A DNA stretch of 64,000 nt from an uncultured delta proteobacterium (GCA_963814585.1 CAWFDF010000016.1:1-64000); one strand, 5' to 3'; positions 31,804 to 51,301 are shown, counted from the first letter of the stretch. Notes: generated from the letters alone by a model not told the origin. Program-made: numbers and translations.

Positions 31804-31868
31804 TGCTGGCCCCGGCTCCTCTTCCGGGCTGAAGGGCGGCGACGCCTGGGCTATCCTCGCGCCCCGCC

Positions 31869-33499
31869 ATGGCCCCCGCACTCCTCGCCTGCCTCACCTG
31901 GGCGCCCGCCCTGGTGGGGCTGGGGGCCGTCGTCCCCCACCGCGCCGATCCGGCGCTGAGGCTCGCCGTCGCCGGGCTGCTCGGCCTCGGCGTGGCCGGG
32001 GTGGCCGCGACGGTGGTCCACTTCGTGGCGCCGGTCACGCCCTGGGTGGCCCTGGCCATCTGGCTGGCGGGCCTGGCGCTGGCCGTCGCCCACCGGCGCT
32101 GGCTGCTCGAGGCGGCCGACCGGCGCCACCTGCTCCCGCTCGCCGCCCTGCTCGGCGCGGCGGCCTTCCTGGCCCGCTCCCCGGACTTCCAGTACGACAC
32201 CGGCTACTACCACCTGCAGCAGGTCGCCTGGCTCCAGCGCGCCTCGACCTACCTGGGCACCGCCAACGTCCACTACCGGCTCGGCTTCAACACCCTCTGG
32301 TCGCCCGTGGCGGCGGCGGTCGAGCTCCCCTGGCTCGAGGGCGAAGAGCGCCTTCTTCCTCAACCTGCTGCCCATCCTCTTCGCCGGGCAGGCGGTCCTG
32401 GTCGGGATCGCCGGCCTGCTCCGGGGCCGCTGGTCCTTCGCCGCCTGGCTCCTGGCCGGCGGCGCGCTCCCGCTGGCCAGCGCCACCTTCGGCGTGGGCG
32501 GGCTCTTCGTGGACTACTCGCTGGCGCTGGTGAGCTTCCTCGCCTGGGCGCTCTGGGCCGCGGCCCTGGAGCGTGGCGAGGGCGGGCTCGGCCCCGAGGC
32601 GCTCCCGGCGGCGCTGCTCTCGATCCTGGCGCTCCTGCTCAAGGCCTCGGCCGCCCCGCTCCTGGGCTTCGGCGTGGTCCTGCTCCTGGTGCGCCGCAGC
32701 TCGGTCGAGCGATCGACCTGGAGGGCGCTGGCCATCGCCGCCCCGGCGGCGGTCCTGCCCTGGCTGGCGCGCGGGGTGGCGCAGTCGGGCTGCCTGGTCT
32801 TCCCGGCGGCGCCCACCTGCCTGTCGTTCCTCCCCTGGGCGGTTCCACGTGACCGCGTGGCCGAGATCGCCCGGGTGATCGGCGACTGGGCCCGGGCGCC
32901 CGGGCTCAATGCTCCGCCCCTCTCCACCTGGGTGCCGCTCTGGCTGCCGGGCGTCCTGGCCGACTACCCGGAGGCGAAGCTGCTGCCGGCCATCTTCCTG
33001 CTCGGCCTCGCGCTCCTGGCGGTGGTCCGGCCGCGCCTCACCGCGGCCTTCGCCTGGGTGACCGGCGGCGCGGCGCTCTCCAGCGCCTTCTGGTTCCTCA
33101 CGGCCCCCGACATGCGGTTCGGCCTCGGCGCCCTCCACGCGCTGGCCCTGGCCCCGGCGGCGCTGGCGCTCGGCGGGCTCGCGCTGGGCGAAGGTCCCGC
33201 CCCTGGCTCGGGTCGCGGCGGCCCTGGCTCCGGCGGTGCTGGCGGCGGGCCTGGTGCTGGCCCTCGACGGCCAGGAGCGGAGCGGCACCACCTTCAACCT
33301 GCCGCCGTGGCGCCCACCGGTGCTGGAGTGGCCGGTCATGCCGGAGGAGCGGATGGTCCGGGTGAGGACCAGGGCGGGGGTGGTGCTCTTCGCGCCCGAT
33401 TGAGGCGAGCGCTGCTGGGCCGCCCCGCTGCCCTGCACGCCGGAGCCGGACGACGCGCTGCGCTTCGACGGCTACTACCACGTGGGGCAGCGTCCCTGA
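31869..33499 (+). CDS. Polytopic membrane protein, GT-C-like (LIC_10190-like); frameshifts and an in-frame TGA at 33401
   Basis: YDTGYYHLQ..W, LG.ANVH.RLGFN, SGCLVFP, WFLTAPD.RFG, G.RCW.APLPCTP. Confidence 0.7.
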
Positions 33500-33674
33500 T
33501 GCCCTGACCCAGGCAAGATGCCTGCTGCGAGAGTCGATCCTCTCGCTGCGGCAGGCGGCCTCGTCGGTCCGCTGCTCAGGGTAGCGCTGCTGCGCTTCCG
33601 CTGCTCCCTCCGCGGGCGCCTGCCTCGCTTCGGTCTCGGCGCTCTCGTCACGTCATCTTGCCTGGATCGGGGCA
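33500..33674. repeat. 175-bp palindromic REP/MITE-like element, copy 1
   Basis: Terminal IR TGCCCTGACCCAGGCAAGATG / CATCTTGCCTGGATCGGGGCA; core near-identical to 53756-53930. Confidence 0.85.
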
Positions 33675-33756
33675 CTTGGCGCCCTGACTTCGGACCCGGG
33701 GCCTCGGCCGCCGGGCGAGGCGACGATCGAGCCCGGCGGCGTGCTAGACGTGGGGC

Positions 33757-35570
33757 ATGGTGCGCGCCTCCGGACCCTCGAACAAGGTGGACGAGCGCCT
33801 CGGGCTGGAGTGGCAGGGCGGTGGCCGGTCCGCGGTCGGGGCCCTGCCCGGCGCGGCGCTCCTGGCCGTCGTCGCGCTGGCCGCCTTCTGGCCCGCGCTC
33901 AGCGGCGGCTACGTGTTCGACGATCACGACCTGCTCGAGTCCGGCACCGTCGTCACCGGGTCGCTGGCGAGCCTCTGGCGCGGCTCCGGCGCCGACTACT
34001 GGCCGCTCACCTCGACGACCTTCTGGCTCGAGCACCGGCTGTTCGGGGGCTCACACCTCCTCGGCCACCTCGTCAACCTGGCGCTCCACGTCGTCACCGC
34101 GTTCCTGCTGTGGCGCGTGCTCCTCCGGCTCGCCGCTGCCGGGGGCCTACGCCGCGGCGCTGCTGTTCCTGGTCCACCCGGTCACGGTCGAGTCGGTGGC
34201 GTGGATCTCCGAGCGCAAGAACGTCCTCTCCGGGGCGCTGTTCATGGGGAGTGGTCTGGCCTGGCTGGCCTACCGATCCGCGGGCGGCTGGCACCGGCAG
34301 GTCTCGGCGCTGCTGCTCTTCCTGCTGGCCCTGCTCGCCAAGACCTCCACCGTCATGCTGCCGGTGGTGCTGGTCGGGCTGGAGCTGGCTTCGCCCACAG
34401 TCTGGCCGCCGCCGCCGCCTCCTGGCGCTCCTGCCTTTCTTCGCGCTGTCCCTGCTCCTCGGCTCGGTCACCCTGTGGTTCCAGTGGACCCGCGCGCTCG
34501 CCAGCACCGGAGACGCCCGCTCCGTGGCGGAGCGGCTGCTCTGGCCGGGGTGGACGGTGGCGACCTACCTGCGTCACGCCGTGCTGCCGATTGACCTGGC
34601 GCTGCTCTACCCGCCCTGGCCGGTCTCGCCCCGGACCTGGTGGTTCGCGGTGCCCACCTTCCTGGTGGCGGCGCTGCTCGCGGCGGCCTGGCGCTGGCGG
34701 TCCGGCCCGGGTCGTGGGCTCTTCGAGGCGCTCGCCTACCACGCCACCATGGTGCTGCCGGTGTCCGGGGTGGTCCACATCGCCTTCTTCCTGTGGAGCC
34801 CGGTCGCCAACCACCTGCAGTACCTGGCCCTGCCCGGACCGCTGGCGTGGGTGGCGTCGCTCCTGGCGGGGCTCCGGCCCGGGCGGTGGCGCCGCGCCGG
34901 GGCGGTCGTCGTGGCCGGCGTCGCCGTGGCCATGGCGACGTCGACGCACCTGCGAGCCCGCGCCTTCGAGGACGACTCCACGCTCTGGGCGGCGGCGGCC
35001 AGCCAGGCTCCGGACAGCCTCCACGCCAGCTGGATGCACGCCGTGGCGCTCCGCAAGTCCGGCCAGCCGGCCCGCGCCCTCGGCGTGCTGGCGGCGCTGG
35101 CCGAGGGGGCGAGCGACGAGGGGACCCGGCACGCCGGCCGCTGCCTCTGGTTCCTCGAGCTGCGCCGGAACGGCGAGGCGCTCGAGCAGGCCCTGGCCTT
35201 CGATCGGATCCGCCACGACCACATCTTCCAGCTCGACGTCTCGATCAAGCTCCTGACCCAGGGAGGGGCGGTCGAGGCCCTGGCGCTGCTGGTGCCGCTG
35301 GCGAGGCGGAACCCGGGCAGCTGGGAGGTCCGTCACTGGCAGCGCCGGGCCCTGGACGAGCTCAGGCTCGCCGGAGGGGCCAGGGAGGCGCTGCGCGCGG
35401 CCTGTGGCGGCTCGCCGCTGGACGGCTGGAGCTGCAGGACGCTCGCCGCGCTCGCCGCGGACGCGGGCGATCGCCAGGAGGCCCGCCGGAGCCTGGCCGC
35501 GGCGCTGGAGCGATCGCCGGCGGACCCCGAGGTGGAGCGGGAGCTGGCGGCGCTGGAGGGCAGCCTGTAG
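33757..35570 (+). CDS. Second TMTC-like membrane glycosyltransferase/TPR protein; frameshifted
   Basis: GYVFDD, DYWPLT..TFWLE..LFG, HLVNLALH, FLVHPVTVESVAWISERKNVL, LLAK, VANHLQY. Confidence 0.78.
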
Positions 35571-35672: not shown

Positions 35673-36830
35673 CTAGCGCCTTCCGTTCCGCTGCGAGAGC
35701 TCGGCCATGAGCGGCGCGCCGCCCACCGGCACCCAGCCGCCGCCCTCGGCGCGGAGCACGGCGTGCACCCGGAGCGGCTGGTGGCTGGTGCGCGGGTCGA
35801 GCTCCTGGTGGAGCGGCAGGTTGAAGTAGTAGAGGCGCGTGCCGGTCCCGAAGCGGAGCCGGCAGGCCGGCGTGCCATGGAAGTCGTCGGTGGAGAACTC
35901 CGGCGTGGCCACCCGGGCCAGCCGGTGCCGGGGCCCGAGGAACACCGAGGAGACGCCGAAGCCGCCCGGGACGGGGTCGCCGAGCTCGCTCCCCTCGGAG
36001 CTGTTGCCGAAGACGGTGATGGTCTCCCTCACGCCGGGCGTGTCCTCCAGGTACTCGCCGTAGAACCCGGCCAGCACGTCCCGGTAGGCGCGGTGCTCGG
36101 GCTTGGGGTTGCACTGGATCACGAAGAGCGCGTCCAGGGTCCGGCGCGCCGCGAAGTACTGCTGGTTGGCGTGGTCGACGATGAGCCGGATGTTGGAGCC
36201 GTAGAGGTCCCGGTACAGGTAGTCGAGGCAGATCAGCACCATGAAGTGGAAGAAGGCCGGCTGGGCGCGGAACCACCAGAAGTGCCGGCCCCGGTACAGG
36301 TCGCCGGACTTGTCGAGGAACTCCTCGGCGCGGAACGGGTGGCTCTTGGCCTCGAAGAACACCCGCAGCCGCCCGCTCGCCTCCTTCACCGCCACGCAGC
36401 ACCAGTTCACCGGGATGTCGGGGAGCGCCCCGGCCGCCAGGTCGCGCTCGACCGCCGGGATGGCCAGCCGGTTGTCGTCGCCGAAGCGCACCAGGGTGTC
36501 GAGGTAGGCGCGCAGCGGGACGTGCTCCAGGCCGAACATGGTCACGGTGCTGGGCCGGAAGCGTTCGCGCACGATGGCGAGGGCGTCGTCGAGCCGCGAG
36601 GCGGGCAAGGCCGCCTCCGGGAAGGTGAGGAAGTGGAGCTTCTGGAAGCGATCGTCCCGCGCCACCAGCTCGAGCACCGAGGCCACGGTGCTCCACTGCG
36701 CCTCGCGGTCCCGCAGGGCGAACCCCTGCGCGGTGGCGATGACCCGCACCGGGACCTGGGCCACCAGGCAGTGGAGGTGGTTGCCCCGCGGGTAGTCGAG
36801 GTTGACCTCGGCCTCGAGGATCTGGATCAC
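35673..36830 (-). CDS. Uncharacterised protein with a probable carbon-nitrogen hydrolase (nitrilase) fold
   Basis: FLTFPE, N.C, EAKSHPF..EE, VLICLD fit the Glu-Lys-Cys triad order. Confidence 0.55.
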   Translation of the reverse strand: MIQILEAEVNLDYPRGNHLHCLVAQVPVRVIATAQGFALRDREAQWSTVASVLELVARDDRFQKLHFLTFPEAALPASRLDDALAIVRERFRPSTVTMFGLEHVPLRAYLDTLVRFGDDNRLAIPAVERDLAAGALPDIPVNWCCVAVKEASGRLRVFFEAKSHPFRAEEFLDKSGDLYRGRHFWWFRAQPAFFHFMVLICLDYLYRDLYGSNIRLIVDHANQQYFAARRTLDALFVIQCNPKPEHRAYRDVLAGFYGEYLEDTPGVRETITVFGNSSEGSELGDPVPGGFGVSSVFLGPRHRLARVATPEFSTDDFHGTPACRLRFGTGTRLYYFNLPLHQELDPRTSHQPLRVHAVLRAEGGGWVPVGGAPLMAELSQRNGRR

Positions 36831-37066
36831 GATGCCCGCCCCCTCGGTCCGCTCCGGCCCCAGCCGCCCGGCGGCGCCCGGCCCGATCGAGGGCGCCCTG
36901 CCGGCCGACCCCTCCACCTTGCGGCGGCGACGCCGGCGGGGCAACCGGCCTCACGGGGCGCCTGGCGAGCCGACGCCGGCCAAGCCCGGGCGGGTTCTCC
37001 CGAGGCGACCCACCGCGGCGACCGGACCAGGTTCGCTCCCCGGTCGGGGGGCCCCGGACAGGCAGC

Positions 37067-37095
37067 TTGACGGATGGCACCGCGCCCAGCACATT
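37067..37095 (+). promoter_or_regulatory. Putative sigma70 promoter of the ArsR/sulfur operon
   Basis: TTGACG-N17-CACATT. Confidence 0.45.
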
Positions 37096-37120
37096 CAACC
37101 ATTCAATTGACAATGATCAA
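37092..37120. promoter_or_regulatory. AT-rich operator: ATTCAA repeats (possible ArsR site) plus an FNR-like box TTGAC-AATG-ATCAA (37107-37120)
   Basis: CATTCAACCATTCAATTGACAATGATCAA overlapping the start codon. Confidence 0.55.
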
Positions 37121-37805
37121 TATCGAGACCCGTCGTCGATCGGCGCTCGCCCACTACGGCGAGATCGCCCGCCTGGGCAAGGCGATGGCCAGCCCGGTCC
37201 GGCTGCAGCTCCTCGACCTCCTCCGGCAAGGGCCGCGAACCGTCGAGGAGCTGGCCGGCACCGCCGGCGTCACCGTCGCCAACTCGTCTCGCCACCTCCA
37301 GCAGATGCGCTCCGCCCGGCTGGTGACCGCGGCGCGGGAGGGGCGCCACGTCCGCTACCGGCTGGCGGACGGCGGCGTCTCGGAGGCCTTCGGGATGCTC
37401 CGGGGCCTCGCCGAGACCCTGCTCCCCGAGATGGACCGGCTGCGGCGCGAGCTGGGCGCGCTCGAGGCCTCCGAGCGCCAGGCGCTGCTGTCCGACCTCC
37501 GCGGCGGACGGAGCACGCTCCTCGACGTCCGCCCCGCCGAGGAGTTCGAGGCGGGGCACCTGCCCGGGGCCCGATCGATCCCCCTCGACGAGCTGCCCTC
37601 GCGCCTCGACGAGCTCCCTCGCGACCGGCCGGTTGTCGCGTATTGCCGCGGCCCCTACTGCCCGCTTGCCGCGGACGCCGCGGAGATCTTGAGTCGGGCC
37701 GGCTACCGCGCCCGGCACCTCGACCTCGGCGTCCCGGACCTGACCCCGGCACGGCCGCACCGCAGCAGCAGCGCACTCCACCTTCGCACGAGGAAGTCCC
37801 GATGA
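37113..37805 (+). CDS. ArsR/SmtB transcriptional regulator fused to a rhodanese domain
   Basis: KAMASPVRLQLLDLL.QG.RTVE.LA...ANSSRHLQ; DVRP..EF.AGHLPGA; AYCRGPYC. Confidence 0.92.
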   Translation: MINIETRRRSALAHYGEIARLGKAMASPVRLQLLDLLRQGPRTVEELAGTAGVTVANSSRHLQQMRSARLVTAAREGRHVRYRLADGGVSEAFGMLRGLAETLLPEMDRLRRELGALEASERQALLSDLRGGRSTLLDVRPAEEFEAGHLPGARSIPLDELPSRLDELPRDRPVVAYCRGPYCPLAADAAEILSRAGYRARHLDLGVPDLTPARPHRSSSALHLRTRKSR

Positions 37806-38749
37806 GAGCCATCCACGCCGCCGTCGCGCTGTCCCTCCTCTCCCTGGCCACCCCGGCCCTGGCCGCCGACGAGTTCATCGGCCACGAGGAGGCCAAGGGG
37901 CTGGTCGGAAAGCCCAACGTCCGCTTCGTCTGGGCCGACGCCGAGAAGGAGCTCGTCAAGGGGCACATCCCCGGCTCGGTGGAGGCCTACGCCCACGACC
38001 TGCACCTCCTCGACGACGTCAAGGCGTGCAAGGGCCTGCCCATGTGCGAGCCGCGCGCCGGCAAGTTCATCGGCGAGAAGCTGGGCATCGACGCCGGCAC
38101 CGAGGTGGTGGTCTACGACGGCGGCCCCGGCGTCAACGCCAGCGGCGCCTGGTTCTTCCTCAAGCTCTACGGCGTGAAGAAGGTCCGCATCCTCGAGGGT
38201 GGGCTGGCCACCTGGAAGGCCCACGGCGGGCCGGTGGAGGCGGGCCCGCCGGCCAAGGTGGCGGCCAGGCCGTTCACGCCCGCCGTCGACTGGAGCATGA
38301 TCGCCGCGGTCGACGAGGTGAAGAAGGCCAGCGGCGACGCCGCGCACTACCTGCTGCTGGACTCCCGCCACAACCTCGACGAGTTCACCGGCAAGACGCT
38401 GCAGGGCGCCCTGGCCTCCCCGGACAAGGAGGAGACGGTGAAGCGCGGCGGCGCCATCCCCGGCGCGGTCTTCTCCCCGTGGAGCAAGTACGCCGGCAAC
38501 AAGGACGGCCAGGCCGACAAGCCGACGCTGAAGACCCAGGCCGACCTGGTGAAGCAGCTCGAGAAGCTGAAGAAGAACGGCTACGACCCCGCCAAGACGG
38601 TCATCAGCTACTGCCACGTCGGCCTCGGCCGCGGCTCCTTCCAGTACCTGGCCCTCCAGAAGGCCGGCCACAAGAACGTCAAGGTCTACGTCGGCTCCTG
38701 GGACGAGTGGGGCAACGACCCCTCGCTCCCGCTGGCCGCGCAGCCCTAG
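37802..38749 (+). CDS. Secreted tandem-domain sulfurtransferase (rhodanese)
   Basis: Signal peptide; GHIPGS, LGI....VVVYD, ILEGG..TW, G.IPGA, active site YCHVGLGRGS, VYVGSWDEW. Confidence 0.9.
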   Translation: MRAIHAAVALSLLSLATPALAADEFIGHEEAKGLVGKPNVRFVWADAEKELVKGHIPGSVEAYAHDLHLLDDVKACKGLPMCEPRAGKFIGEKLGIDAGTEVVVYDGGPGVNASGAWFFLKLYGVKKVRILEGGLATWKAHGGPVEAGPPAKVAARPFTPAVDWSMIAAVDEVKKASGDAAHYLLLDSRHNLDEFTGKTLQGALASPDKEETVKRGGAIPGAVFSPWSKYAGNKDGQADKPTLKTQADLVKQLEKLKKNGYDPAKTVISYCHVGLGRGSFQYLALQKAGHKNVKVYVGSWDEWGNDPSLPLAAQP

Positions 38750-38764
38750 CGCCCGGGAGCGTCC

Positions 38765-39892
38765 ATGCTCGGTCCCTTCCTCACGGGCGCCCTCACCGGC
38801 GCGGGCTTCGGGGTGGTGCTGTACAAGGTCGGCGCCACCCGCTACTCGCGCGTCATGGGGATGCTCACCCTGCGCGACACCAAGGTGATGAAGTTCGCCT
38901 TCACCGCCATCGGGGTGGCCTCCATCCTCTACGGCCTGGCCGCGGCGCTCGGCCTGGCCGAGGGGTGGGGGCTGGCGCCGCGGGTGATGCCCTGGCTGGG
39001 CGGCGCCCACCTGCTCGGCGGCGCGCTCTTCGGCGCCGGCCTGGGCATCTCCGGGCTCTGCCCCGGCACCTGCGTGGCCAAGTCGGGCGGGCGGGGCGGC
39101 GACAAGAAGTTCGCCACCCTGGGCGCGATGGTGGGGCTGGTCGCCGGCGTGCTCGTCTACGCCGCCATCAAGGACTGGCTGCTGGCCTCCGGCGTCATCG
39201 CCGCCAACCAGAAGCCGCTCACCGTCTACGGCGAGCTGGGGCTGCCCTACGCGGCGGCGGCGCTGGCCTGGGGGGCGCTCTTCGTGCTGATCGCCCTCTT
39301 CGCCGACCGGTTCACGCCGGAGAAGACCTACCAGCCGGCGCAGCCTCGCCAGGGGCTCCTCGACGTCGTGCGCGGCGAGTGGAGCTGGGTCGCCTCCGGC
39401 ACCGTGGGCGGCGTGCTGGTGGTGCTGGCCACCGCCCAGGGCGGCTACCTGGGCTTCTCGGGCGCGCTGCTGGCGGCCACCGGCTGGGCGGCCCAGGCGG
39501 TGGGCCACCCGCTCGAGCTGGTCCCTCGCATCAACGCCGACATCGTCTGGCGCGCCGCGCTGATCGTCGGCGTCTGGCCGGGCGCCTGGCTGGCGCACCG
39601 GGTCTCCCTCCCGTCGAGGGCGGCGGTGGAGGCCCCGGTGGCCAAGGTGCTCGACCCGGCCGCCATCGGCCGCAGCTTCGGCGCCGCCACCATGATGGCC
39701 GCCGGCGCGCTCATCGGCGGCGGCTGCACCACCGGCGCCTTCATCGCCGCCTGGCCGACCATGTCGCTGGGGAGCCTGGCCATGGCCGTGACCTTCTTCC
39801 TGGTCTCCATGGCGGTGGCCGGCGGCCGCAGCCTGGCCCACACCCTCGACGTCGGCGCCGCCCAGGCGGCGGGCGACCGCGTCTATGACTGA
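38765..39892 (+). CDS. YeeE/YedE-family sulfur-compound transporter (fused halves)
   Basis: GGALFGAGLGISGLCPGT and GALIGGGCTTG motifs; multiple TM segments. Confidence 0.85.
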   Translation: MLGPFLTGALTGAGFGVVLYKVGATRYSRVMGMLTLRDTKVMKFAFTAIGVASILYGLAAALGLAEGWGLAPRVMPWLGGAHLLGGALFGAGLGISGLCPGTCVAKSGGRGGDKKFATLGAMVGLVAGVLVYAAIKDWLLASGVIAANQKPLTVYGELGLPYAAAALAWGALFVLIALFADRFTPEKTYQPAQPRQGLLDVVRGEWSWVASGTVGGVLVVLATAQGGYLGFSGALLAATGWAAQAVGHPLELVPRINADIVWRAALIVGVWPGAWLAHRVSLPSRAAVEAPVAKVLDPAAIGRSFGAATMMAAGALIGGGCTTGAFIAAWPTMSLGSLAMAVTFFLVSMAVAGGRSLAHTLDVGAAQAAGDRVYD

Positions 39893-39902
39893 GAGGCGAG
39901 CC

Positions 39903-40040
39903 ATGACCACCCAGGTCAGAGTCCTCCTCGTCGCCGCCATCCTGGCCCTGGCCCTCGGCTGGGCCGGCCTGCGACGCGGCAACCAGGCGCTCGAGCTGCG
40001 CCTGGCCAGCCAGCCCGCGGCCGGGGAGCGGTCGCCATGA
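39903..40040 (+). CDS. 45-aa single-TM protein
   Basis: RBS GAGG; MTTQVRVLLVAAILALALGWAGLRRG...; stop overlaps the next ATG (ATGA). Confidence 0.55.
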   Translation: MTTQVRVLLVAAILALALGWAGLRRGNQALELRLASQPAAGERSP

Positions 40041-40507
40041 GGCGCGCCCGCCTCGAGCCGCTGGCCTACGCCGCGGCGCTGCTGGTGCTGGCCGGGCTCC
40101 TCGGCTTCGAGGGGCGCCGGCGCGTCGAGCTGGAGCGCCAGCTGCCGGTGGAGCCGAAGGAGCTGTACCGGCTGCTGGCCAGGACGCAGGCCACCTGGCA
40201 GCTCCTCGACATCCGGCCCGACCTGTCCGAGGGCTACGACGACGCCCACGTCCCGGGCGCCCTGCCGCTGCCCGGTTGCGACCCGGCGGCCGCGCCCGAG
40301 GCGGCCCGGGCCCGCATCCTCACCACCGTCCCCACCGTGGTGATCTCGGCCGAGGGCGGCGAGCCCGGCCTGCAGGAGTGCCTGGCCCGCTTCGCCTCGG
40401 CGCGCAGCCTGGCCGGCGGCATGGAGGCCTGGAGCGCGGCGAGCCTGCCGGAGGACTCCGGCGAGTACACCCCGCCGTCGGCCAAGGCCGGCGGCGGCTG
40501 CCTCTGA
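40037..40507 (+). CDS. Membrane-anchored rhodanese-like protein with C-terminal GGGCL
   Basis: LLDIRP, YDDAHVPGA, LAGGMEAW; no Cys at the canonical loop position. Confidence 0.75.
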   Translation: MRRARLEPLAYAAALLVLAGLLGFEGRRRVELERQLPVEPKELYRLLARTQATWQLLDIRPDLSEGYDDAHVPGALPLPGCDPAAAPEAARARILTTVPTVVISAEGGEPGLQECLARFASARSLAGGMEAWSAASLPEDSGEYTPPSAKAGGGCL

Positions 40508-40571
40508 CGAGGACGGCCGGGAAGAGGGCACGCGAGAGCGCGGAACGGAGCGGGAACGGAGGGAGACCGAC

Positions 40572-43438
40572 ATGACCGTCAGCCGCAGGAGCCTGCTGAA
40601 GAGCCTCGTCGCCCTGGGCGCCAGCGGGGCCGTCACCCGGGTGCTGGCCAAGGACGGGACACCGGCGGCCGCTCCCGCCGCCCCGGCGCCGGTCGGCACC
40701 GCCGCCACCGAGGCGGCCTGGCGCGCCGAGTTCGCCGCCACCTACGGCGACGGCGAGCAGCACGGCTTCGCCTACCACTGCGTCAACTGCCAGGGGAACT
40801 GCGCCTGGGAGGTGTGGACCGACCGGGACGGGAAGGTCACCCGCGAGAACCAGTCGGCCAGCTACCCGGCCGTGGCCGCCGACATCCCCGACGCCAACCC
40901 GCGCGGCTGCAACAAGGGCGTGCAGCAGTCGCAGCTGCTGTACCAGGCCGACCGGCTCCTCCACCCCATGCGCCGGGCCGGCGCCCGCGGCGAGGGGAAG
41001 TGGAAGCGCATCGGCTGGGACGAGGCCATCACCGAGGTGGCCACCCGGCTCTACGAGACCATGCTGGAGAAGGGGCCGGCCGGGAACTACGTGCACATGG
41101 GCTCGGGCATGCTCTCCGAGGCCCGGGCGGCCTCGGTGAAGCGGCTGGGCACCCTGCTCGGCGCGGTCCGCCCCTACATCGCCAGCTACGTCGGCGACAT
41201 GTTCCCCGGCGTCTCGGCGGTCTACGGCGAGGGGAACCTCGGCTGCACCTACGACTTCATCTACGGCAGCGACGTGGCGCTCTTCTGGGGCTGCAACCCC
41301 AACACCTCGCGCATCCCCGACGCCCACTACCTGTGGGAGGCGAAGTACCGCGGCGCCAGGGTCATCGTCATCACCCCGGAGTTCAACGCCACGGCGGTGC
41401 ACGCCGACCTGTGGGTGCCGGTGAAGGCCGGCGACGACGGCCACCTGGCGCTGGCCATCATCCACCGCCTGCTCACGCAGAAGCGCTACCCCGAGGCCTT
41501 CCTCAAGAAGTTCACCGACCTGCCGCTGCTGGTCCGCACCGACACCCGCGAGCTGGTGCGGCTGGCCGAGGTCGACCTCTCCGACCCGCGCTTCGACCGG
41601 TCCTCGGCGGCGCTCTTCGCCGCCGACGAGGAGAAGTGGCACGAGGTCTTCCTGGCCTGGGACGCGAGGCGCAGGCAAGGCCATCGCGCTGCCGGGCTGC
41701 GAGGGCTCCAGCATCGACACCCTGCGGCTGGAGGACATCGACTGGAAGCTCGACCCGGCCCTGACCGGGCGCCACCGGCTCAAGCTCAAGGGGCACGGCG
41801 AGGTGGAGGTGGTCCCCGCCTTCGCGCTCTTCGCCGAGGAGCTGGCCGCCTGGTCGGCGGAGAAGGTGCAGCCGGTCACCGGCGTCCACCCGTCGGTGGT
41901 GGACGCCCTGGCGCGGGAGCTGGCCGGATCGCGGACCGCGGTCATCACCCTCGGCTTCGCGGTGGGCAAGCACTTCAACGGCATGCTCTCGCAGCGGGCC
42001 ATCGCCTCGCTGGCCGCCTTCCTCGGCCGGCTCGGCCCCAGCGGCGGCCTCAACACCGAGAACGAGTGGAGCATCACCGGCCTGGAGGCGCTCTCCGGGT
42101 TCGCCGGCCGCTACACCCACCGCTTCGCCTCCGGCTTCGTCTCCGAGTTCATGATGGGCGACGGCCTCGACGACCCGTCCTTACGACGACGCCGACGTGA
42201 AGCGCGCCACCGGCCTGGAACGGGCCGCCTGGCGCGACCAGGTCACCCGCCTGGTGGCCGCCTCGGAGGGCGACGCCGGCGCCGGCAAGGGGAAGCCCTG
42301 GTGGAAGGGGAGCGAGACCTTCCTGCTCTTCGCCGACGCCCGCTTCCGGCGCAACAAGGGGGCCTACCGCGACGCCTTCCTGGAGAAGGCGAAGTTCATC
42401 GCCTACGGCGACTTCCGCATGAGCGAGTTCGCCACCTGGGCGGACGTCCTGCTCCCCTGCACCACCTCCTACGAGGCCTGGGACCTGCGCACCAACCCCG
42501 GCTACCACCGCTTCGCCAACCTCTGCGCGCCCCCGGCCAACCTGAAGAGGGTCGGCGAGGTGAAGTCGGAGTGGGAGATCTCCACCCTCATCGCCGAGAA
42601 GCTGCAGGCGCTGGCGCTGGCCCGCTTCAAGGCCACCGGCGACGAGCGGGCCATCAAGATCCCCGACCCCACCCACACCCAGGCCGGCTTCCACGCCCTG
42701 GACCGGCTGGTCGAGGAGTTCACGCTGGGCGGCAAGCTGCGCACCGACCGCGACGCGGTGGAGTTCGCGCTCGACCACGTGGACCAGTTCAAGCCCTCCA
42801 CCTCCAGGGCCATGGTGGAGCGGGGCGGCTTCCTGGTCCTCAACGACAAGGCCGGCAAGACCTCGCCGCTCTACCCGGACCGGCCCTACAGCTCCTTCGA
42901 GAACAACCTCCACCTGAGCCAGCGCTTCGAGACCCTCTCCGGGCGCCTCACCTTCTACGTGGACCACCCGGCCTGGATCGCGGCGCGCGCCGCGCTGCCC
43001 ACCGCCACCCTGCCCATCCACCCGAGGCGCTTCCCGCTGCTGCTGATGACGCCCCACTCCCGCTGGTCGATCCACTCGACCTACAAGGTCTCGCCCACCC
43101 TGCTCCGGCTGCAGCGCGGCGAGCCCTGCCTGACGCTCAACCCGGCCACGGCCCGCCAGAAGGGCATCGCCGACGGCGACCGGGTGCGGATGTGGAACGC
43201 GCTGGGCGAGGTGGTGCTGCAGGCCAAGCTGGCCGCCGGCGTCCCGCCCGGCGCCGTGGTGCTGGAGCACGGCTGGGAGCCGTTCATGTACCGCGGCAAG
43301 CAGGGGCACAACGCCATCGTGGGCGACGCCCTCAACCTGCTGGAGCTGAGCGACGGCTGGGGCCACCTGAAGTTCGGCACCAACTGGGACGGCAACCAGC
43401 ACGCCTACGACGCCACCGTCGACGTGGCGCGGGTCTGA
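40572..43438 (+). CDS. Periplasmic DMSO-reductase-family molybdoenzyme alpha subunit, type II (Nar/Pcr/Ser/Ebd-like); frameshifts near 41680 and 42180
   Basis: Tat motif SRRSLLK; FS0 motif HCVNCQGNC...NPRGCNKG; Mo-Asp motif YVGDMFPG; WGCNP, RIPDAH, ADLWVPV..G.D, TPHSRWSIHS. Confidence 0.88.
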
Positions 43439-43451
43439 GGGGGAGGCGACC

Positions 43452-44498
43452 ATGTCCGCGAGACAGCTGGCGATGGTGATGGACCTCAACAAGTGCATCG
43501 GCTGCCAGACCTGCACGGTCTCCTGCAAGACGCAGTGGACCAACCGGAGCGGCCGCGAGTACATGTACTGGAACAACGTCGAGACCCGCCCCGGCGCCGG
43601 CTACCCGGCCGGCTGGGAGCAGCAGGGGGGCGGGTTCGACGCCGCCGGGGCGCTGCGCGAGGGGACCGTGCCGTCGCGCAGCGGCGCCTACGGCACGCCC
43701 TGGGACTTCAACCTCGACGAGGCGGCGCTGGGCAAGGAGATCCGCCCGGACTCCGAGCCGCGCCAGGGGCCGAACTGGGACGAGGACGTGGGCGCCGGGG
43801 AGTTCCCCAACGCCTGGCACTTCTACCTGCCGCGCATCTGCAACCACTGCTCCAGCCCGGGCTGCCTGGCGGCCTGCCCGCGCGGCGCCATCTTCAAGCG
43901 CGACCAGGACGGCGTGGTGCTGGTGGACCAGGAGCGCTGCGAGGGGCTGCGCTACTGCGTCGCCGGCTGCCCCTACAAGAAGATCTACTTCAACCCCAAG
44001 GTCTCCAGGTCGGAGAAGTGCATCCTCTGCTTCCCGCGCGTGGAGAAGGGGCTGGCGCCGGCCTGCGCCCAGCAGTGCGTGGGGCGTCTGCGCTTCGTCG
44101 GCTACCTCGACGACCAGGCCGGCCAGGTCCACCAGCTGGTGCACCGCTGGCAGGTGGCCCTGCCACTTCACGCGGAGTACGGCACGCAGCCCAACGTCTA
44201 CTACGTGCCGCCGCTGCCGGGACCGCCCCGCTACGACGCCCAGGGGAAGGCCATCGCCGGGAGCGAGCGCATCCCGGCCGCCTACCTGGAGGGGCTCTTC
44301 GGCCCCGGGGTGAAGAAGGCCCTGGCCACGCTGGAGGCCGAGAGGAAGAAGAAGAAGGCCGGCCAGCCGTCGGAGCTGATGGACCTGCTCATCGCCTTCA
44401 AGCAGGAGGGGATGTTCCGGCTGGGCACGGCGACCGACCCGGGGCTGGTGAAGCTGGGGCGGCGCGGCATCCGCTCGGTCGAAGGCGGGGGGCACTGA
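43452..44498 (+). CDS. Type II DMSO-reductase-family Fe-S beta subunit (NarH/EbdB-like)
   Basis: DLNKCIGCQTCTVSCK, YWNNVET.PG, FYLPRICNHC..P.C..ACP, CPYKK, EKCILCFPR, LH.EYGT.PNVYY. Confidence 0.93.
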   Translation: MSARQLAMVMDLNKCIGCQTCTVSCKTQWTNRSGREYMYWNNVETRPGAGYPAGWEQQGGGFDAAGALREGTVPSRSGAYGTPWDFNLDEAALGKEIRPDSEPRQGPNWDEDVGAGEFPNAWHFYLPRICNHCSSPGCLAACPRGAIFKRDQDGVVLVDQERCEGLRYCVAGCPYKKIYFNPKVSRSEKCILCFPRVEKGLAPACAQQCVGRLRFVGYLDDQAGQVHQLVHRWQVALPLHAEYGTQPNVYYVPPLPGPPRYDAQGKAIAGSERIPAAYLEGLFGPGVKKALATLEAERKKKKAGQPSELMDLLIAFKQEGMFRLGTATDPGLVKLGRRGIRSVEGGGH

Positions 44499-44500
44499 CC

Positions 44501-45677
44501 ATGCGCGCCCTGCTCGCCGCCGCCCTGGCCTCGCTGGCCGTCCCCCTGGCACCGGCCGCCGCGCCGCCGCCGGCCGGGGAGATCATCGAGGTGAAGGACC
44601 TCCCCGGCCCGCTCCCCGTCGACCCGGCCTCCCCGGCCTGGGATGCGCTTCCCGCCACCCGCCTCCTGGCCGCGCCGCAGCGGACCATCCGGCTCCACGA
44701 CCAGAAGGCCAACGCCGCCCTGGCCACGGCCCGGCTCCGCGAGCTCACGGTGCGCGCCGCCACCGACGGCCAGGGACCTGGCGGTGGTCGTCGACTGGAA
44801 CGACGGCACCGAGGACCGCGGCGCGGCGGACGCCACCGATCGCTACGGCGACGGCGTGGCGCTGCAGTGGCCGCTCCACTTCGGGGCCGGGGTGCGCCTC
44901 CCCTACGTGGGCATGGGGGACGATCGGCAGCCGGTGGGCGTGGTGCTGCAGCGCGCGGCCGCCCAGGGCTCGGTGGTCCGCCAGGCCCGGGGCACCGGGT
45001 TCGGCGCGCTGGCCCGCGCCGACCTGGGCCCGGTCCAGGCGGCCATGCGCCACGACGGGCAGCGGCTCGGCTGGCGCGCCGTCTTCGTCCGGCCGCTGGC
45101 GGCCGGCGGCCTGGACCTGCGGCGCGGCCTGGTCCCGCTGGCCCTGGCCGTCTGGGACGGCGGGCGCGACGAGCGCGGCGGCAACAAGGCGCTGACGGGC
45201 TGGAAGTTCCTGCGCCTGGCCCGCTACCCGCTCGACGAGGCCTACGCCGCCGAGCAGGCCTGGGGGCGCGAGGCCGGCCCGCGCGACCTGAAGCGCGGGC
45301 AGGCCCTCTTCGAGGAGACCTGCACCGCCTGCCACCAGGCCGGCTCGCAGCGCGCCGCCGCCGCCGGGCTGGCCCCCGACCTCTCGGAGCTCGGCGTCAT
45401 CTCCACCCCCGGCTACCTGCGCGACTCGCTGCGGGCGCCCAGCGAGGTGATCGTGCCGAACCCCAACCCGCGCCAGCACCAGGACCGGACCGCCAGGCTC
45501 CCCCCCGGCGCCCCGTGGCCGGCCGACGACGCCTACGTCTGGTACGTGCTCGAGGCGGACGGCCGCAGGACCTCGTCGATGCCCGACTCCGCGGCGTTGC
45601 CGCCCCAGGATCTCGCCGACCTGGTCGCCTACCTCATGACCCTGGGGGCGGAGCCGCCCGCCGGGAGGACCCCATGA
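44501..45677 (+). CDS. EbdC-like heme b gamma subunit fused to a cytochrome c domain; frameshift near 44770
   Basis: Signal peptide; W.D.T, D.VALQW, PYVGMG, GFG, W..VF.RPL, AVWDG...ERG.NK; then CTACH...SMP. Confidence 0.82.
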
Positions 45678-46081
45678 AGCCGATCCTCGCTGCCGCGCTG
45701 CTCTCGCTGATCACGCCGTCCGGCCCGGCCCGCGCCGAAGGTCCCGGCGAGGAGGTGGAGGTCACCGCCGGCGTGGTGACCGGCCTGGACTGCGCCCTGC
45801 AGGCCCGCGCCAAGGGCGAGCTCAAGCTGCTCACCTCCTGCCCGCCCGCCCAGGCCGCCAAGGGGCTGGTGGTCTTCGACGTGGCCGAGAAGCGCATCTA
45901 CCGGATCGCCGACAAGACGGTCCGGCGCTACCAGCTGGAGAGCGCCTTCGGCGGCGGCAGCATCGACTTCACCGGCAAGGCGGTGAAGCTGGACACGGCG
46001 AAGGACATCACCACCGTCGAGGTGGCGGAGTTCTCGATCGCCAGGCGGCCCAAGCCCGGCGCCTTCAAGGGGTGCCTGTGA
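45674..46081 (+). CDS. Secreted hypothetical protein ending in FKGCL
   Basis: Signal peptide, ATGA coupling to the upstream gene, three Cys. Confidence 0.7.
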   Translation: MKPILAAALLSLITPSGPARAEGPGEEVEVTAGVVTGLDCALQARAKGELKLLTSCPPAQAAKGLVVFDVAEKRIYRIADKTVRRYQLESAFGGGSIDFTGKAVKLDTAKDITTVEVAEFSIARRPKPGAFKGCL

Positions 46082-46100
46082 CGGCGCCGCGAGGGGCGCC

Positions 46101-46973
46101 GTGAGCGAGGGGGCCGCCCTGGTCCAGCTGGGCGGGCGCCAGGAGGTCCCCTTCGGCCACACCGCGGCGCCGCACGACCGCGCCCCCTGGGCCCGCCACG
46201 TGGTCCTCTTCACCAGCGGCAAGGGCGGCGTGGGCAAGTCGACGGTGGCGGTCAACGTGGCCAACGCCCTGGCGCAGCGTGGCCTGCGGGTCGGGCTCCT
46301 CGACGCCGACGTCCACGGCCCCAGCGTGCCGCGCATGCTGCAGCTCGAGGGCGAGCGGGTGCGGTGGAACGACGCCGGCCGGATGGTCCCCGCCGAGAAC
46401 TTCGGCCTCCGCGTCATGAGCGTGGGGCTGACCACGCCGGACGCCGACACGCCGCTGGCCTGGCGCTCCGCGGTGGCCATCACGGCGCTGCTCCAGCTGC
46501 TCGACGACGTGGCCTGGGGCGAGCTGGACGTGCTGGCCATCGACCTGCCGCCCGGCACCGGCGACGTGCCGCTCACCCTGGCGCAGGAGCTCCGCGTGGG
46601 CGCCGCCGTGGTGGTGACCACGCCGCAGCTGGTGGCCACCGACGACGTGCGGCGCGCCCTGCGGCTCCTGCTCGAGGTGGGCGTGCCGGTGGCCGGCGTG
46701 GTGGAGAACATGAGCGGCTTCGTCGCTCCCGACACCGGCGTCCGCCACCACCCGTTCGGCGAGGGCGGTGGCCGGGCGCTGGCCGGCGACTTCGAGGTCC
46801 CCTTCCTCGGCGAGATCCCGCTCGACCCGGCCATCTGCGCCGCGGCCGACGCCGGGACGCCCATCGCCGCGGTGGGCGGAGAGGCGCACCGGGCCCTCTT
46901 CGCCGGCCTGGCCGAGCGGCTCTGGACGTGGCTGGAGTCGCGGGCGGCTGGCGAGGCGAGCACGGGCCGATAG
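46101..46973 (+). CDS. mrp: Mrp/ApbC/NBP35 Fe-S cluster carrier ATPase
   Basis: SGKGGVGKST, DADVHGPS, WG.LD.L.IDLPPGTGD, VTTPQ, GVVENMS; lacks the usual CPxC. Confidence 0.9.
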   Translation: MSEGAALVQLGGRQEVPFGHTAAPHDRAPWARHVVLFTSGKGGVGKSTVAVNVANALAQRGLRVGLLDADVHGPSVPRMLQLEGERVRWNDAGRMVPAENFGLRVMSVGLTTPDADTPLAWRSAVAITALLQLLDDVAWGELDVLAIDLPPGTGDVPLTLAQELRVGAAVVVTTPQLVATDDVRRALRLLLEVGVPVAGVVENMSGFVAPDTGVRHHPFGEGGGRALAGDFEVPFLGEIPLDPAICAAADAGTPIAAVGGEAHRALFAGLAERLWTWLESRAAGEASTGR

Positions 46974-47065: not shown

Positions 47066-47079
47066 TTGACCGCGATCAA
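47066..47079. promoter_or_regulatory. FNR/CRP-family box
   Basis: TTGAC-CGCG-ATCAA versus the consensus TTGAT-N4-ATCAA. Confidence 0.6.
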
Positions 47080-47127
47080 TCAAGCTCCTGGAACTACCCG
47101 TTTTCGCGATCCTTCGTCCAGGCCGGG

Positions 47128-47959
47128 ATGGCGCTCCCTGGTCACGATCGGGTCGCTGGCCGCCGCAGCGCTGGCGGCCCCTCCTGCCCTGGCCCAGACC
47201 ACCGACCAGCTCAAGCGAGAGGTGGCCAGCATCGGCGTCGAGGAGCGGCTCGGCGCCGCCGTGCCCCGCGCGGCCACCTTCACCGACTCGGAGGGGCGCC
47301 CGGTCACGCTGGCGGAGCTCGGCGGCCGGCCGCTCCTCCTCTCCTTCAACTACACCAGCTGCCCGCGGCTCTGCGGCCTGCAGCTCTCCGGCCTGTCGCG
47401 GGCGCTGCGCGATCTCGGCTGGAGCGGCGACCGCTTCGGCGTGCTGACGGTGAGCATCGACCCCGACGAGCAGCGTCCCCAGCTGGCCCGCTACAAGCAG
47501 GCGCACGTGCGCGAGGCCGGCGGCAGCGACGGCGCCGACCGGGCCTGGCGCTTCGTCACCGGGCCGAAGGCCGACGTGGACGCGCTGGCCGAGGCGGTGG
47601 GCTTCAAGTACCGCTACGACCCGAGGACCAAGGAGTACGCCCACCAGGCCACCCTGGTGGTCCTCACCGGCGACGGGCGGGTCAGCGGCTACCTGCACGG
47701 CATCAGCTACCCGGCCCCGGCGCTCACCGCGGCCCTGGCGCGGGCCTCGTCGAACAGCGTCGCCACCACCGAGGAGCAGCGCAGCGTCGGCGGCTTCCTC
47801 CTCACCTGCATGGGCTTCGACCCGGCCGACCCGGCCCCGCTGGCGCTCAAGGCCATGCGCACCGGCGGCACCGCCGCCCTGGTCTTCCTCGTCTCCTTCC
47901 TCGGCTACCACGCGCTCCGCGGCGCCAGGCGCCGCCGCCTCCAGGAAAAGGCACCATGA
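47128..47959 (+). CDS. sco: SCO family copper chaperone (start probably ATG 47128 with a 1-nt error)
   Basis: [31 protein letters not shown]. Confidence 0.88.
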
Positions 47960-48929
47960 CCCTCGCCCCCGGGCTGCTCCAGGCCCTCCTCCTCGCCGGC
48001 CCCGGCTACCTGCCGGAGCGCGCCTCCAGCGTGGCCGAGGGGGTGGACCACGTCTTCGGCTTCATCTTCTGGGTGAGCGCCGTCTCGCTGGTGCTCATCG
48101 TGGCGGTCACGGTGGTCTTCGTGCTGCGCTACCGGGCCAGCGCCTCGCGCCAGGCGCCGGAGGCCTCGCCCGACCACTCCACCCGCCTGGAGCTGACCTG
48201 GTCCGGCATCCCGCTGGTCCTGGTGCTGGTGATGTTCGGCCTCTCCACCAAGGTCTACCTGGAGATGACCTCCAACCCGCCCGGCCAGGCGCCGGCCCAG
48301 GTCAAGGTGACGGCCAAGAAGTGGTCGTGGTGGTTCGACCACCCGGACGGCATGGGGGCCAAGGACCTGCACCTGGTGGTGGATCGCCCGGTCGAGCTGG
48401 TGCTGGCCTCGATCGACGTCGTCCATTCCCTGTACGTGCCGCAGTTCCGCCTCAAGCAGGACGCGGTCCCGGGCCGCTACACCCGGATGAACTTCACCCC
48501 CACCAAGGCCGGCACCTTCCCCATCCTCTGCACCGAGTACTGCGGGACCAACCACTCGCAGATGCTGGCCGAGGTGGTGGTCCACGAGGACCAGGCCTCC
48601 TACGACGCCTGGGCCGCCGAGGGGCGCTCCCCCACCCTCTCGCTGGTCGACCAGGGGCACAAGGTCTTCGACGAGCGGGGCTGCACCGCCTGCCACAGCG
48701 AGGACGGCTCGGAGGGGCTCGGGCCGACCGTCAAGGGGCTGTGGGGCAAGACCGAGAAGCTGGTGGGCGGCGGCACCGCCGTCGTCGACGAGAACTACGT
48801 GCGCGAGTCGATCGTGGCGCCCGGCAAGAAGATCGTGGCCGGCTACGACGACCTGATGCCGCCCACCCCGCTCGAGGAGCGGGACCTGCTGGCGCTCATC
48901 GCCTACCTGCAGAGCCTGAAGGAGAAGCC

Positions 48930-48933
<4 letters not shown>
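47956..48933 (+). CDS. coxB: Cytochrome c oxidase subunit II with fused cytochrome c (caa3)
   Basis: [27 protein letters not shown]uA motif, C-terminal CTACH. Confidence 0.95.
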
Positions 48934-50596
<1,663 letters not shown>

Positions 50597-50600
<4 letters not shown>

Positions 50601-51301
50601 GCGGCCCGGCGTCACCTCGGCCGGTGGCGGGCACCGCCTCGCCCTTCCTCGCCAGCCACTTCCGGAGCATGGGGGAGCAGCTCGACGCCAGCAAGCTGGG
50701 GCTGTGGCTCTTCCTGGCCAGCGAGCTGCTCTTCTTCGGCGGGCTCTTCGTGGCCTACGCCGTCTACCGGGCCAACCACCCCGAGCTGTTCCACTACGCC
50801 CACCACTTCCTCGACTGGCGCCTGGGCGGCCTCAACACGCTGGTGCTGATCGGCAGCAGCCTGACCGCCGCCTGGGCGGTGCGCAGCGCGCAGCTGGGCC
50901 GGCAGCGCGAGCTGCGGCTCCTGCTGGTCGCCACCCTGCTGCTGGCCAGCGTCTTCCTGGTGGTGAAGTACTTCGAGTACACCCACAAGCTGCACCACGG
51001 CGTCTTCTGGGGCGCCGCCTACCACCCCAGCGAGGAGATCCTGGCCTCGCTGCCGGCGGCGCTGCGGGCGGCGCCGGTCCCGGCGCACCTCGGCACCTTC
51101 TTCAGCATCTACTTCCTCATGACCGGCCTGCACGGCATCCACGTGCTGGTCGGCATGGGGCTGTACCTGTGGCTGATCCGGCGGGCCGGGCGCGGCGACT
51201 TCTCGCCCGGCTACTACGTCCCGGTCGACGCGGTGGCCCTCTACTGGCACCTGGTCGACATGATCTGGATCTTCCTCTTCCCGCTCTTCTACCTGATCTG
51301 A
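50597..51301 (+). CDS. coxC: Cytochrome c oxidase subunit III
   Basis: [38 protein letters not shown]. Confidence 0.95.

Follow-up and report, generated by a model that had tools for sequence, protein, structure and literature searches.

A conserved cassette of sulfur-transfer genes and a type II molybdenum enzyme with a possible role in the oxidation of protein-bound sulfur

Gene content of the operon and placement of its molybdenum enzyme

The stretch of DNA analysed here (the window, 64,000 nucleotides; GCA_963814585.1 CAWFDF010000016.1:1-64000) is contig C16 of the genome of an uncultured delta proteobacterium, which is 4.3 Mb in size, 91.7% complete and has Anaeromyxobacteraceae as its nearest named relatives. 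Ten co-directional genes occupy 37113-46973 (+), and several of them overlap by their stop and start codons. They encode an ArsR-rhodanese regulator, an exported rhodanese, a YeeE/YedE-family membrane protein, a short membrane peptide, a membrane-anchored rhodanese, the alpha, beta and gamma subunits of a molybdenum (Mo) enzyme of the dimethyl sulfoxide (DMSO) reductase family, a secreted protein and an Mrp-like ATPase. An initial annotation had proposed a ten-gene sulfur-relay and type II molybdoenzyme operon at this place, and every gene that it listed was found on the + strand within these bounds. It had overlooked the invariant C-terminal cysteine tails on two accessory proteins, the anchored rhodanese and the secreted protein.

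The alpha subunit (40572-43438, +) is predicted to be exported by the twin-arginine translocation (Tat) pathway. It carries the FS0 iron-sulfur cluster motif HCVNCQGNC and the Asp ligand motif YVGDMFPG, and an intact relative of 957 amino acids (aa) was 92% identical. HCVNCQGNC...C and YVGD aligned with PcrA (D170), ClrA and NarG, and the Asp ligand was invariant in 57/57 alpha subunits. Alpha scored 714 bits against TIGR03479, below the cut-off of 985, as expected because its branch lies outside the seed of that model. The beta iron-sulfur subunit (43452-44498, +) passed the cut-off of TIGR03478 (516.7 vs 480.7 bits). Gamma (44501-45677, +) has a signal peptide and a heme-b (EB_dh, PF09459) domain fused to a class I cytochrome c (PF00034), a fusion also seen at an Aquificota locus; the Met and Lys heme-b ligands and the CxxCH motif were invariant in 67/67 sequences. 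The NarH-like beta and soluble Met/Lys heme-b gamma, like the alpha motifs, are those of the type II subfamily. No delta chaperone gene was present between beta and gamma in the window or at locus L131, unlike in the sister clade, where locus L147 has one; ClrD was present in locus L102.

Two trees were constructed without bootstrap, one by FastTree (76 rows) and one by quick IQ-TREE (30 rows), the named PcrA, SerA and DdhA being outside both. In both trees the alphas of the window and the other cassettes grouped with Campylobacterota sequences in one clade with support of 100 and a stem of 0.48-0.49. Its neighbours outward were the single sequence P0124, a group with the motif HC[IV]NCxGNC and then Clr/Ser; Nar and Ebd-like rows fell outside the clade and its sister groups. 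We take the HC[IV]NCxGNC group to be Ddh-like, this being the motif of DdhA. Alpha was sister to this group and not within it, a placement in which the Ddh label stands for the motif and not for a comparison with a named DdhA; identity was 37% to a representative of the group and 34% to ClrA. A large marine and sediment type II group (L146-L195) has HC[IV]NCxGNC and a delta chaperone, and its members are probably Ddh relatives. The Campylobacterota alphas formed a sister sub-branch at 47-49% identity. Two sequences of that branch (P0125 and P0127) have lost FS0 cysteines or other conserved motifs and have long branches, and are degenerate paralogues or decaying copies.

Assignments to Nar, Clr/Ser, Pcr and Ebd were rejected. 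Against the NarG model TIGR01580 alpha gave less than 140 bits per piece (cut-off 1084), and it lay far from NarG in both trees; a separate NarGH-like locus is located on contig C8 of the host genome. A Clr/Ser identity was discarded on the 34% identity to ClrA, the position outside the ClrA clade (SerA being absent from the tree) and the missing delta chaperone, and a Pcr identity on the gate residues F164/Y165/W461 of PcrA (absent from the trees), which are Ile/Ala/Trp here. Two pieces of alpha scored 168 and 90 bits against the Ebd model NF042978 (cut-off 2000), and Ebd was separate in the tree. The Ddh-type operon layout did not apply either, as the delta chaperone between beta and gamma is absent and a sulfur relay is present. 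Judged by sequence, alpha belongs to the type II subfamily of DMSO reductases but appears to fall in none of the characterised groups there. This supports the earlier suggestion of a novel enzyme with respect to the Clr/Ser, Ebd-like and Nar groups of trees from which PcrA, SerA and DdhA were absent. Among the characterised type II members listed in the available part of PMC10100899, none has a protein-bound substrate. The expectation that the enzyme would be mis-annotated as nitrate reductase was borne out in part. The JGI label 'nitrate reductase / nitrite oxidoreductase' stood on 5 of the 120 relatives listed for the Campylobacterota-type sequence and a Thiovulum paper names a similar operon nar (PMC9938260, in excerpt), whereas the closest relatives are labelled 'DMS dehydrogenase' (DMS, dimethyl sulfide) or 'complex iron-sulfur molybdoenzyme'.

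In the window assembly the open reading frame (ORF) of alpha is broken across three frames and that of gamma across two. When the DNA was aligned to that of the intact relative L017 (92%), single extra bases appeared at 41673 and 42183 in alpha and at 44773 in gamma. Short-read contigs from three DNA runs, which were runs of close relatives and not of the window strain, omitted the extra bases at all three places wherever these were covered. Because L017 and the contigs lack these bases, the three insertions are probably assembly errors, and a pseudogene reading of alpha and gamma was ruled out on the same grounds. RNA run X17 contained contigs of relatives (about 90% alike) across several of the genes; they showed neither strand nor level and were not used as evidence. 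At 29922-35570 (+) the window encodes membrane proteins with tetratricopeptide repeat (TPR)-like C-termini and apparent repeated frame changes, which suggests further one-base assembly errors.

Conservation of the cassette and its two cysteine-tailed proteins

A profile of 31 alpha relatives retrieved 527 confirmed stretches, the best 80 of which were analysed; these came from Myxococcota, Bdellovibrionota, Hydrogenothermaceae (Aquificota) and a few Pseudomonadota. The loci share a near-invariant eight-gene core consisting of the exported rhodanese, YeeE, the peptide, the anchored rhodanese, alpha-beta-gamma and the secreted protein. Among loci with enough contig sequence on the side concerned, the exported rhodanese was found in 71/71 loci, YeeE in 75/75, the anchored rhodanese in 79/79, the secreted protein in 65/66, beta in 71/71 and gamma in 66/67, and the single miss was the broken locus L051. 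Gene order was identical in a complete Aquificota genome. The sulfur genes are conserved neighbours of the enzyme, fixed across loci of the best 80, a point on which the initial annotation had let its proposal depend. Searches with four profiles found the sulfur genes at none of 50 loci of the nearest other group (0/50), nor at two further controls, the loci of ClrA and of Haloferax Nar; with the gamma profile, 34 of these 52 control loci gave a match. In an even sample, the carrier profile detected the cassette in 33/301 Myxococcota. By alpha it was present in 33/131 Aquificota, and it occurs in 33 of about 36 Hydrogenothermaceae-type genomes. Fisher tests overstate the associations, since kin are not independent.

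The membrane-anchored protein (40037-40507, +) has a rhodanese fold on a membrane helix (Foldseek, best E 2e-6). Its active-site loop contains no cysteine, and the candidate working cysteine is that of the C-terminal tail GGGCL, which ended 80/80 anchored rhodaneses (the window and 79 loci; L089 was dropped at a contig edge). Cys81 and Cys115 were also invariant. The model had a predicted local distance difference test (pLDDT) value of 92 overall and 51 in the last block, so that the tail is of low confidence, as for a flexible segment. The secreted protein of 135 aa (45674-46081, +) has a Sec-type signal peptide, an invariant pair Cys40/Cys56 and the C-terminus FKGCL in 67/67 sequences. Both Cys81/Cys115 and Cys40/Cys56 are probably disulfides. 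The model of the FKGCL protein was a well-folded barrel of oligonucleotide/oligosaccharide-binding (OB) type with a low-confidence flexible tail. No Pfam or NCBIfam match was obtained for it, and Foldseek returned no match at E 0.001. Fold searches indicated a generic OB-fold only (best match Z 6.5, root-mean-square deviation 3.0, 76 aligned residues), and the ESM Atlas gave unnamed clusters. We propose that the FKGCL protein is a sulfur carrier.

A complex of alpha and the FKGCL protein was predicted from the L017 proteins, each with its own 57-row alignment. The score was 0.88, compared with 0.00 for the best of three controls. The score mark was reached by 116/157 solved complexes and by 2/215 mismatched pairs, a calibration that is only rough given the separate alignments. 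The runs shared at least 72% of contacts, with a partner pLDDT of at least 86. The best-resolved contacts joined the OB domain to alpha residues 314-330 and 716-723; the alpha interface also included 121, 142-144, 162, 438-442, 444, 580 and 876, and the interface lists contained tail residues 128-135 of the FKGCL protein. Alpha residues 143, 144 and 439 align with F164, Y165 and W461 of PcrA, which are named as its tunnel gate in the portion of PMC6650914 consulted. The F164/Y165 positions were Ile/Ala in 57/57 alphas, smaller than in PcrA, so the funnel would be wider. The prediction supports binding of the FKGCL protein to alpha, and from the two interface lists its tail may enter the substrate funnel.

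Regulator, membrane proteins and neighbouring genes

A putative promoter, TTGACG-17 bases-CACATT, was read from the sequence directly 5' of the ArsR start (37067..37111, +), overlapped by an inverted repeat TTCAA-N8-TTGA that is a candidate operator. The strict pattern TTCAA-N8-TTGA was present in 14 of 22 relatives carrying the regulator, and 4 more deviated at the first base. A consensus promoter and terminator scan detected no promoter there and gave nothing useful. The regulator (37113-37805, +) is an ArsR-family repressor (PF01022) fused to a rhodanese domain (PF00581; YCRGPYC); its gene was present in 23/80 loci, none of them Aquificota. It is probably a persulfide sensor that is accessory to the core. 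For ArsR proteins beside YeeE-like transporters, repression relieved by persulfide is described in the sections of PMC11582611 available. The operator repeat at the promoter and the rhodanese domain on ArsR suggest, by analogy with those proteins, that persulfide would likewise relieve repression of the operon. Divergent from the operon, at 35673-36944 (-), lies a 423-aa ORF that gave no Pfam or NCBIfam match and, among the 80 loci, neighboured the cassette in L017 only. Its FPE...K...ICLD motifs resemble those of a nitrilase-fold hydrolase, a putative assignment.

The exported tandem-domain sulfurtransferase (37802-38749, +; PF00581 twice) has a signal peptide and is of the tandem-rhodanese class, with two domains and the catalytic Cys in the loop of the C-terminal one. 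This residue, Cys271 in the loop CHVGLGR, was invariant in 74/74 sequences, the loop YCHVGLGR was found in 64/74, and a Cys76/Cys82 pair was invariant. The best solved match was the thiosulfate sulfurtransferase 3aax (E 2e-26); scores were below the MST and ExtH cut-offs (ExtH 46 bits vs 200). The YeeE/YedE-family protein (38765-39892, +; PF04143) has Cys99 and Cys321 in 76/76 and Cys103 in 71/76 sequences. It was not accepted as TsuA, given 29 bits against NF052577 (cut-off 400) and an N-terminal loop without cysteine. No recurring TusA-like neighbour was found among clustered ORFs of at least 90 aa around the cassette in the 80 loci. A peptide of 45 aa with a single hydrophobic transmembrane segment and no cysteine follows (39903-40040, +), and a similar ORF was present at its position in 69/79 loci. 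The Mrp/ApbC-like Fe-S carrier ATPase (46101-46973, +; PF10609) was found in 29/80 cassette loci. It was also present in 25/50 sister-clade loci and is therefore considered accessory and not specific to the cassette.

A second aa3-type oxidase (SCO, coxB with cytochrome c, coxA and coxC; 47066..51301, +) starts 92 bases after Mrp, beyond the bounds given in the initial annotation, and is the probable electron sink. Of the 17 closest loci, 14 have this block adjoining the cassette, and three are truncated by contig ends. The other aa3 set of the host genome is on contig C12 (57%). The window-type aa3 was beside the cassette in 5/5 cassette genomes and was found in 1/5 cassette-free genomes. In the nearest relative an 857-aa repeat-rich gene (RCC1-like by eye; L017:16464-19037) separates Mrp from SCO, which shows that close coupling of the aa3 block is not obligatory.

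Sulfite-oxidase-family genes were beside the cassette in 15/80 loci, in at least eight arrangements, upstream or downstream and on either strand; 13 were SorA-like and 2 SorT-like with a fused SorU-like cytochrome. In the latter (L050:16218-17888 and L067:15955-17565) the SorT-like dehydrogenase fused to a SorU-like cytochrome c lies directly downstream of the cassette. Among the 301 Myxococcota, sulfite-dehydrogenase-like genes occurred in 14/33 cassette genomes and 37/268 others, and in 11 of these 14 the gene and the cassette were no more than about 13 kb apart on one contig (counted by hand).

At 25/80 loci the cassette is followed by a second, Psr/Phs-like Mo enzyme of Tat type (about 1095 aa; L085:15854-22395) with an Fe-S subunit, NrfD anchor, TorD-like chaperone and ferredoxin, never together with a sulfite-dehydrogenase-like gene in one locus. 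It reached no NCBIfam cut-off, and its close orthologues were nearly confined to genomes that carry the cassette. The 301 Myxococcota contained 12 close orthologues, all in cassette genomes (12/33) and none with SorA. In Aquificota the second Mo enzyme was present in 32/33 cassette genomes, and 17/33 had both it and SorA. A simple replacement of SorA by this enzyme thus held in Myxococcota (0/33 with both) and failed in Aquificota (17/33 with both). Four Aquificaceae-type genomes do not share it, and for this reason it was not equated with Aquifex Soe/Sre. No match to it was obtained in the window's genome or its 44 sampled family members.

Proposed function and comparison with known systems

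From the genes, conservation, motifs, tree position and neighbours observed here, we consider it reasonably probable that the module takes carrier-bound sulfane sulfur up to the oxidation level of sulfite, as a functional counterpart of SoxYZ/SoxCD assembled from unrelated parts. Among the substrates that had been suggested for the enzyme, protein-bound sulfane sulfur gained most support, by the cysteine tails, the predicted docking and the sulfite-dehydrogenase neighbours; a selenium or arsenic-sulfur oxyanion gained none. The exported rhodanese would take sulfane sulfur from thiosulfate or polysulfide and become persulfidated, sulfite being released from thiosulfate as in the chemistry of its family. 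The sulfur would then be handed to the tail cysteine of the FKGCL protein. The GGGCL protein would probably shuttle sulfur between periplasm and YeeE, letting it reach the ArsR-rhodanese sensor. In the predicted complex the FKGCL protein would dock on alpha with its tail in the substrate funnel, and the Mo centre would transfer water oxygen onto the outer sulfur, up to the sulfite level, as DMS dehydrogenase does with a thioether. Electrons may flow from FS0 through the beta clusters, heme b and fused heme c to an oxidase, here the second aa3. Where present, the linked SorA/SorT-type enzyme would remove sulfite.

The distribution in Aquificota bears on this proposal. SoxB was found in 87 of the 131 genomes and SoxC in 1. 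The 33 cassette genomes had SoxB in 28, SoxC in 0 and an sHdrB-type match in 0; each had a single HdrB-like match, which at the one locus read was a succinate-dehydrogenase-type subunit. Of the other 59 genomes with SoxB, 56 had a match that scored in the range of a true sHdr cluster (one locus read). HdrB matches were sorted by E-value band, with 52 secondary matches outside the listing, and among the matches listed no Aquificota genome had both the cassette and an sHdrB-type match. The pattern fits a statement in the available portion of PMC4912159 (Tamazawa et al.) that no elemental-sulfur-oxidation genes are known in Sulfurihydrogenibium genomes. The cassette was present in the cultured species S. 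yellowstonense (L070, partial contig).

Several points weigh against oxidation of a carrier-bound substrate. The split between cassette and sHdr in Aquificota follows two families and is one contrast, not 87. In the predicted complex, the 25 contact pairs that are best resolved are made by the OB domain and not by the tail, and the model, made without cofactor, gives no contact for the tail cysteine. All 15 SorA/SorT-like neighbours score under curated cut-offs, 7/33 Myxococcota cassette genomes lack both SorA and the second Mo enzyme, and the Psr/Phs-like neighbour at 25/80 loci could point to reductive or disproportionating chemistry. The host genome (91.7% complete) gave no SoxB, SoxY, flavocytochrome c sulfide dehydrogenase/sulfide:quinone reductase (FCSD/SQR)-type domain, DsrA or SorA, so that external thiosulfate or polysulfide would have to be the starting point here and sulfite the product released; the proposal does not account for the sulfur source or the sulfite sink of this host. 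The Sulfurovum indicum transcriptome, the sole one checked, gave no link to the cassette in the part available; rhodaneses induced there on S0 are among unrelated genes with no Mo enzyme adjoining. As to direction, Met/Lys heme-b potentials of +256 mV in ethylbenzene dehydrogenase (EbDH) and +324 mV in Ddh are given in the accessible text of PMC8840923. Such potentials, if valid here, would disfavour reduction of polysulfide or thiosulfate, which are low-potential sulfur acceptors. Ser and Clr are reductases of high-potential acceptors with this type of heme-b gamma, and the architecture alone therefore does not set the direction.

A less probable explanation is that the enzyme uses a free sulfur anion (sulfite, thiosulfate or tetrathionate) or a small organosulfur compound (DMS or methanethiol), with the FKGCL protein as a fixed subunit, a plug or a reactivator that sulfurates or protects the Mo site. 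The score of 0.88 and the large OB-domain interface would be expected of a stable subunit no less than of a transient carrier, Ddh-like sequences are the group closest to alpha, the delta chaperone of the sister clade is missing from the cassette, and a rhodanese by itself frees sulfite from thiosulfate. The linked SorA/SorT genes would, however, be redundant beside an enzyme of free sulfite, and two separate proteins bear like cysteine tails. The Sec-type signal peptide of the FKGCL protein excludes a cytoplasmic chaperone role, and Asp-ligated type II enzymes are not known to have a sulfido ligand. We regard it as unlikely that the module serves as one half, oxidative or reductive, of a system for sulfur disproportionation or reduction with the Psr/Phs-like NrfD-anchored Mo enzyme, or itself reduces high-potential sulfur species such as carrier-bound thiosulfonate or tetrathionate. 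The second Mo enzyme does accompany the cassette at 25/80 loci, in 32/33 Aquificota cassette genomes and, as 12/12 orthologues, in Myxococcota cassette genomes, but the window's genome and its 44 sampled family members gave no match to it and have the aa3 oxidase adjoining instead. Its failure to co-occur with SorA in Myxococcota (0/33) suggests that it may be another sulfite sink, an argument limited by the 17/33 Aquificota cassette genomes that carry both.

A Ser-type reductase of selenate or another chalcogen oxyanion, with the relay handling the selenite or selenide product, appears quite improbable. In its favour, Ser/Clr follows the Ddh-like group outward in the tree, the ExtH model is matched weakly by the exported rhodanese (46 bits vs 200), and PMC11582611 describes a YedE-like protein that carries selenium in Methanococcus. 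Alpha is, however, only 34% identical to ClrA with a differing FS0 motif, and Cys was present in all 67 and 80 tails examined, which came from the best 80 of 527 loci. The occurrence in 33 of about 36 Hydrogenothermaceae-type genomes and the linkage to sulfite dehydrogenases and O2 reductases fit bulk sulfur and not trace selenium. Periplasmic nitrate reduction is the least credible function. Some relatives carry that label, including in the excerpt of PMC9938260, and NarG shares the subfamily and the Asp ligand, but the narG model gave under 140 bits per piece (cut-off 1084) and both trees separate the clade widely from NarG. The host has its separate NarGH-like locus on C8, and nitrate reduction would leave the fixed sulfur relay unexplained.

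If sulfane-sulfur oxidation is the function, the cassette would extend the DMSO reductase family to a protein-bound substrate and add a new carrier fold, correct 'nar' calls that feed nitrogen-cycle inferences, and give sulfur-oxidation potential to 33/301 Myxococcota from soils, wetlands and sediments. More tentatively, it could be an undescribed route of sulfane-sulfur oxidation beside SoxCD, reverse Dsr, sHdr and persulfide dioxygenase, in which a DMSO-reductase-family enzyme acts on a protein-bound persulfide via a new OB-fold carrier. It may then supply the missing step in Sulfurihydrogenibium, Persephonella and probably Thiovulum-like Campylobacterota, and about one in ten Myxococcota may be cryptic sulfur oxidisers. 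Because the cassette genomes include the cultured S. yellowstonense (L070), the question of sulfur oxidation in Sulfurihydrogenibium is directly testable. Full-text literature searches, with subscription journals mostly outside coverage, found no paper testing or naming the cassette; the clusters of PMC13490349 are other clusters. According to the available part of PMC9938260, Ca. Thiovulum stygium expresses an operon of six genes, comprising rhodanese genes, 'narG', 'narH', one gene for a cytochrome c and one without annotation, published as nitrate reductase, and Thiovulum, a sulfur oxidiser, is reported there without sox, dsr and apr. Compared by this published description only, the operon probably belongs to the cassette family.

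The cassette resembles DdhABC of Rhodovulum sulfidophilum and the related Ser, Clr and Ebd enzymes in the Tat-exported alpha, the His-Cys-Cys-Cys FS0, the Asp ligand, the Fe-S beta and the soluble Met/Lys heme-b gamma, and with DdhABC it would share chemistry of the same type, water oxygen being placed onto sulfur. It differs from these enzymes in its long separate stem, the lack of a delta chaperone and the cytochrome c fused to gamma, and in the fixed sulfur-relay genes and the predicted docking partner, absent from 50/50 sister loci. In the Sox system, as described in the parts of PMC10045233 and PMC11582611 available, a periplasmic carrier holds sulfur on the cysteine of its flexible C-terminal arm and offers it there to a molybdoenzyme wired to cytochrome c. 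The proposed model has a similar arrangement of carrier arm and molybdoenzyme, with which the invariant tail and predicted docking are consistent. The parts are unlike those of Sox: the FKGCL carrier is an OB-type barrel without SoxY homology (the host genome gave no PF13501 match), SoxC belongs to the sulfite-oxidase family whereas alpha belongs to the bis(pyranopterin guanine dinucleotide) (bis-PGD) DMSO-reductase family, and loading would be by rhodanese instead of SoxAX, with no SoxB in the cassette or the host genome. The relay genes also resemble the SoxT1A/SoxT1B and TsuA modules: in Hyphomicrobium, according to PMC11582611, the surroundings of soxT1A likewise combine a YeeE-family gene with genes for a rhodanese, an ArsR-type repressor and a short membrane peptide that lacks cysteine. 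The cassette YeeE appears to keep two of the three TsuA cysteine positions and adds Cys103, and the rhodaneses of those modules are cytoplasmic, whereas those of the cassette are exported or membrane-anchored.

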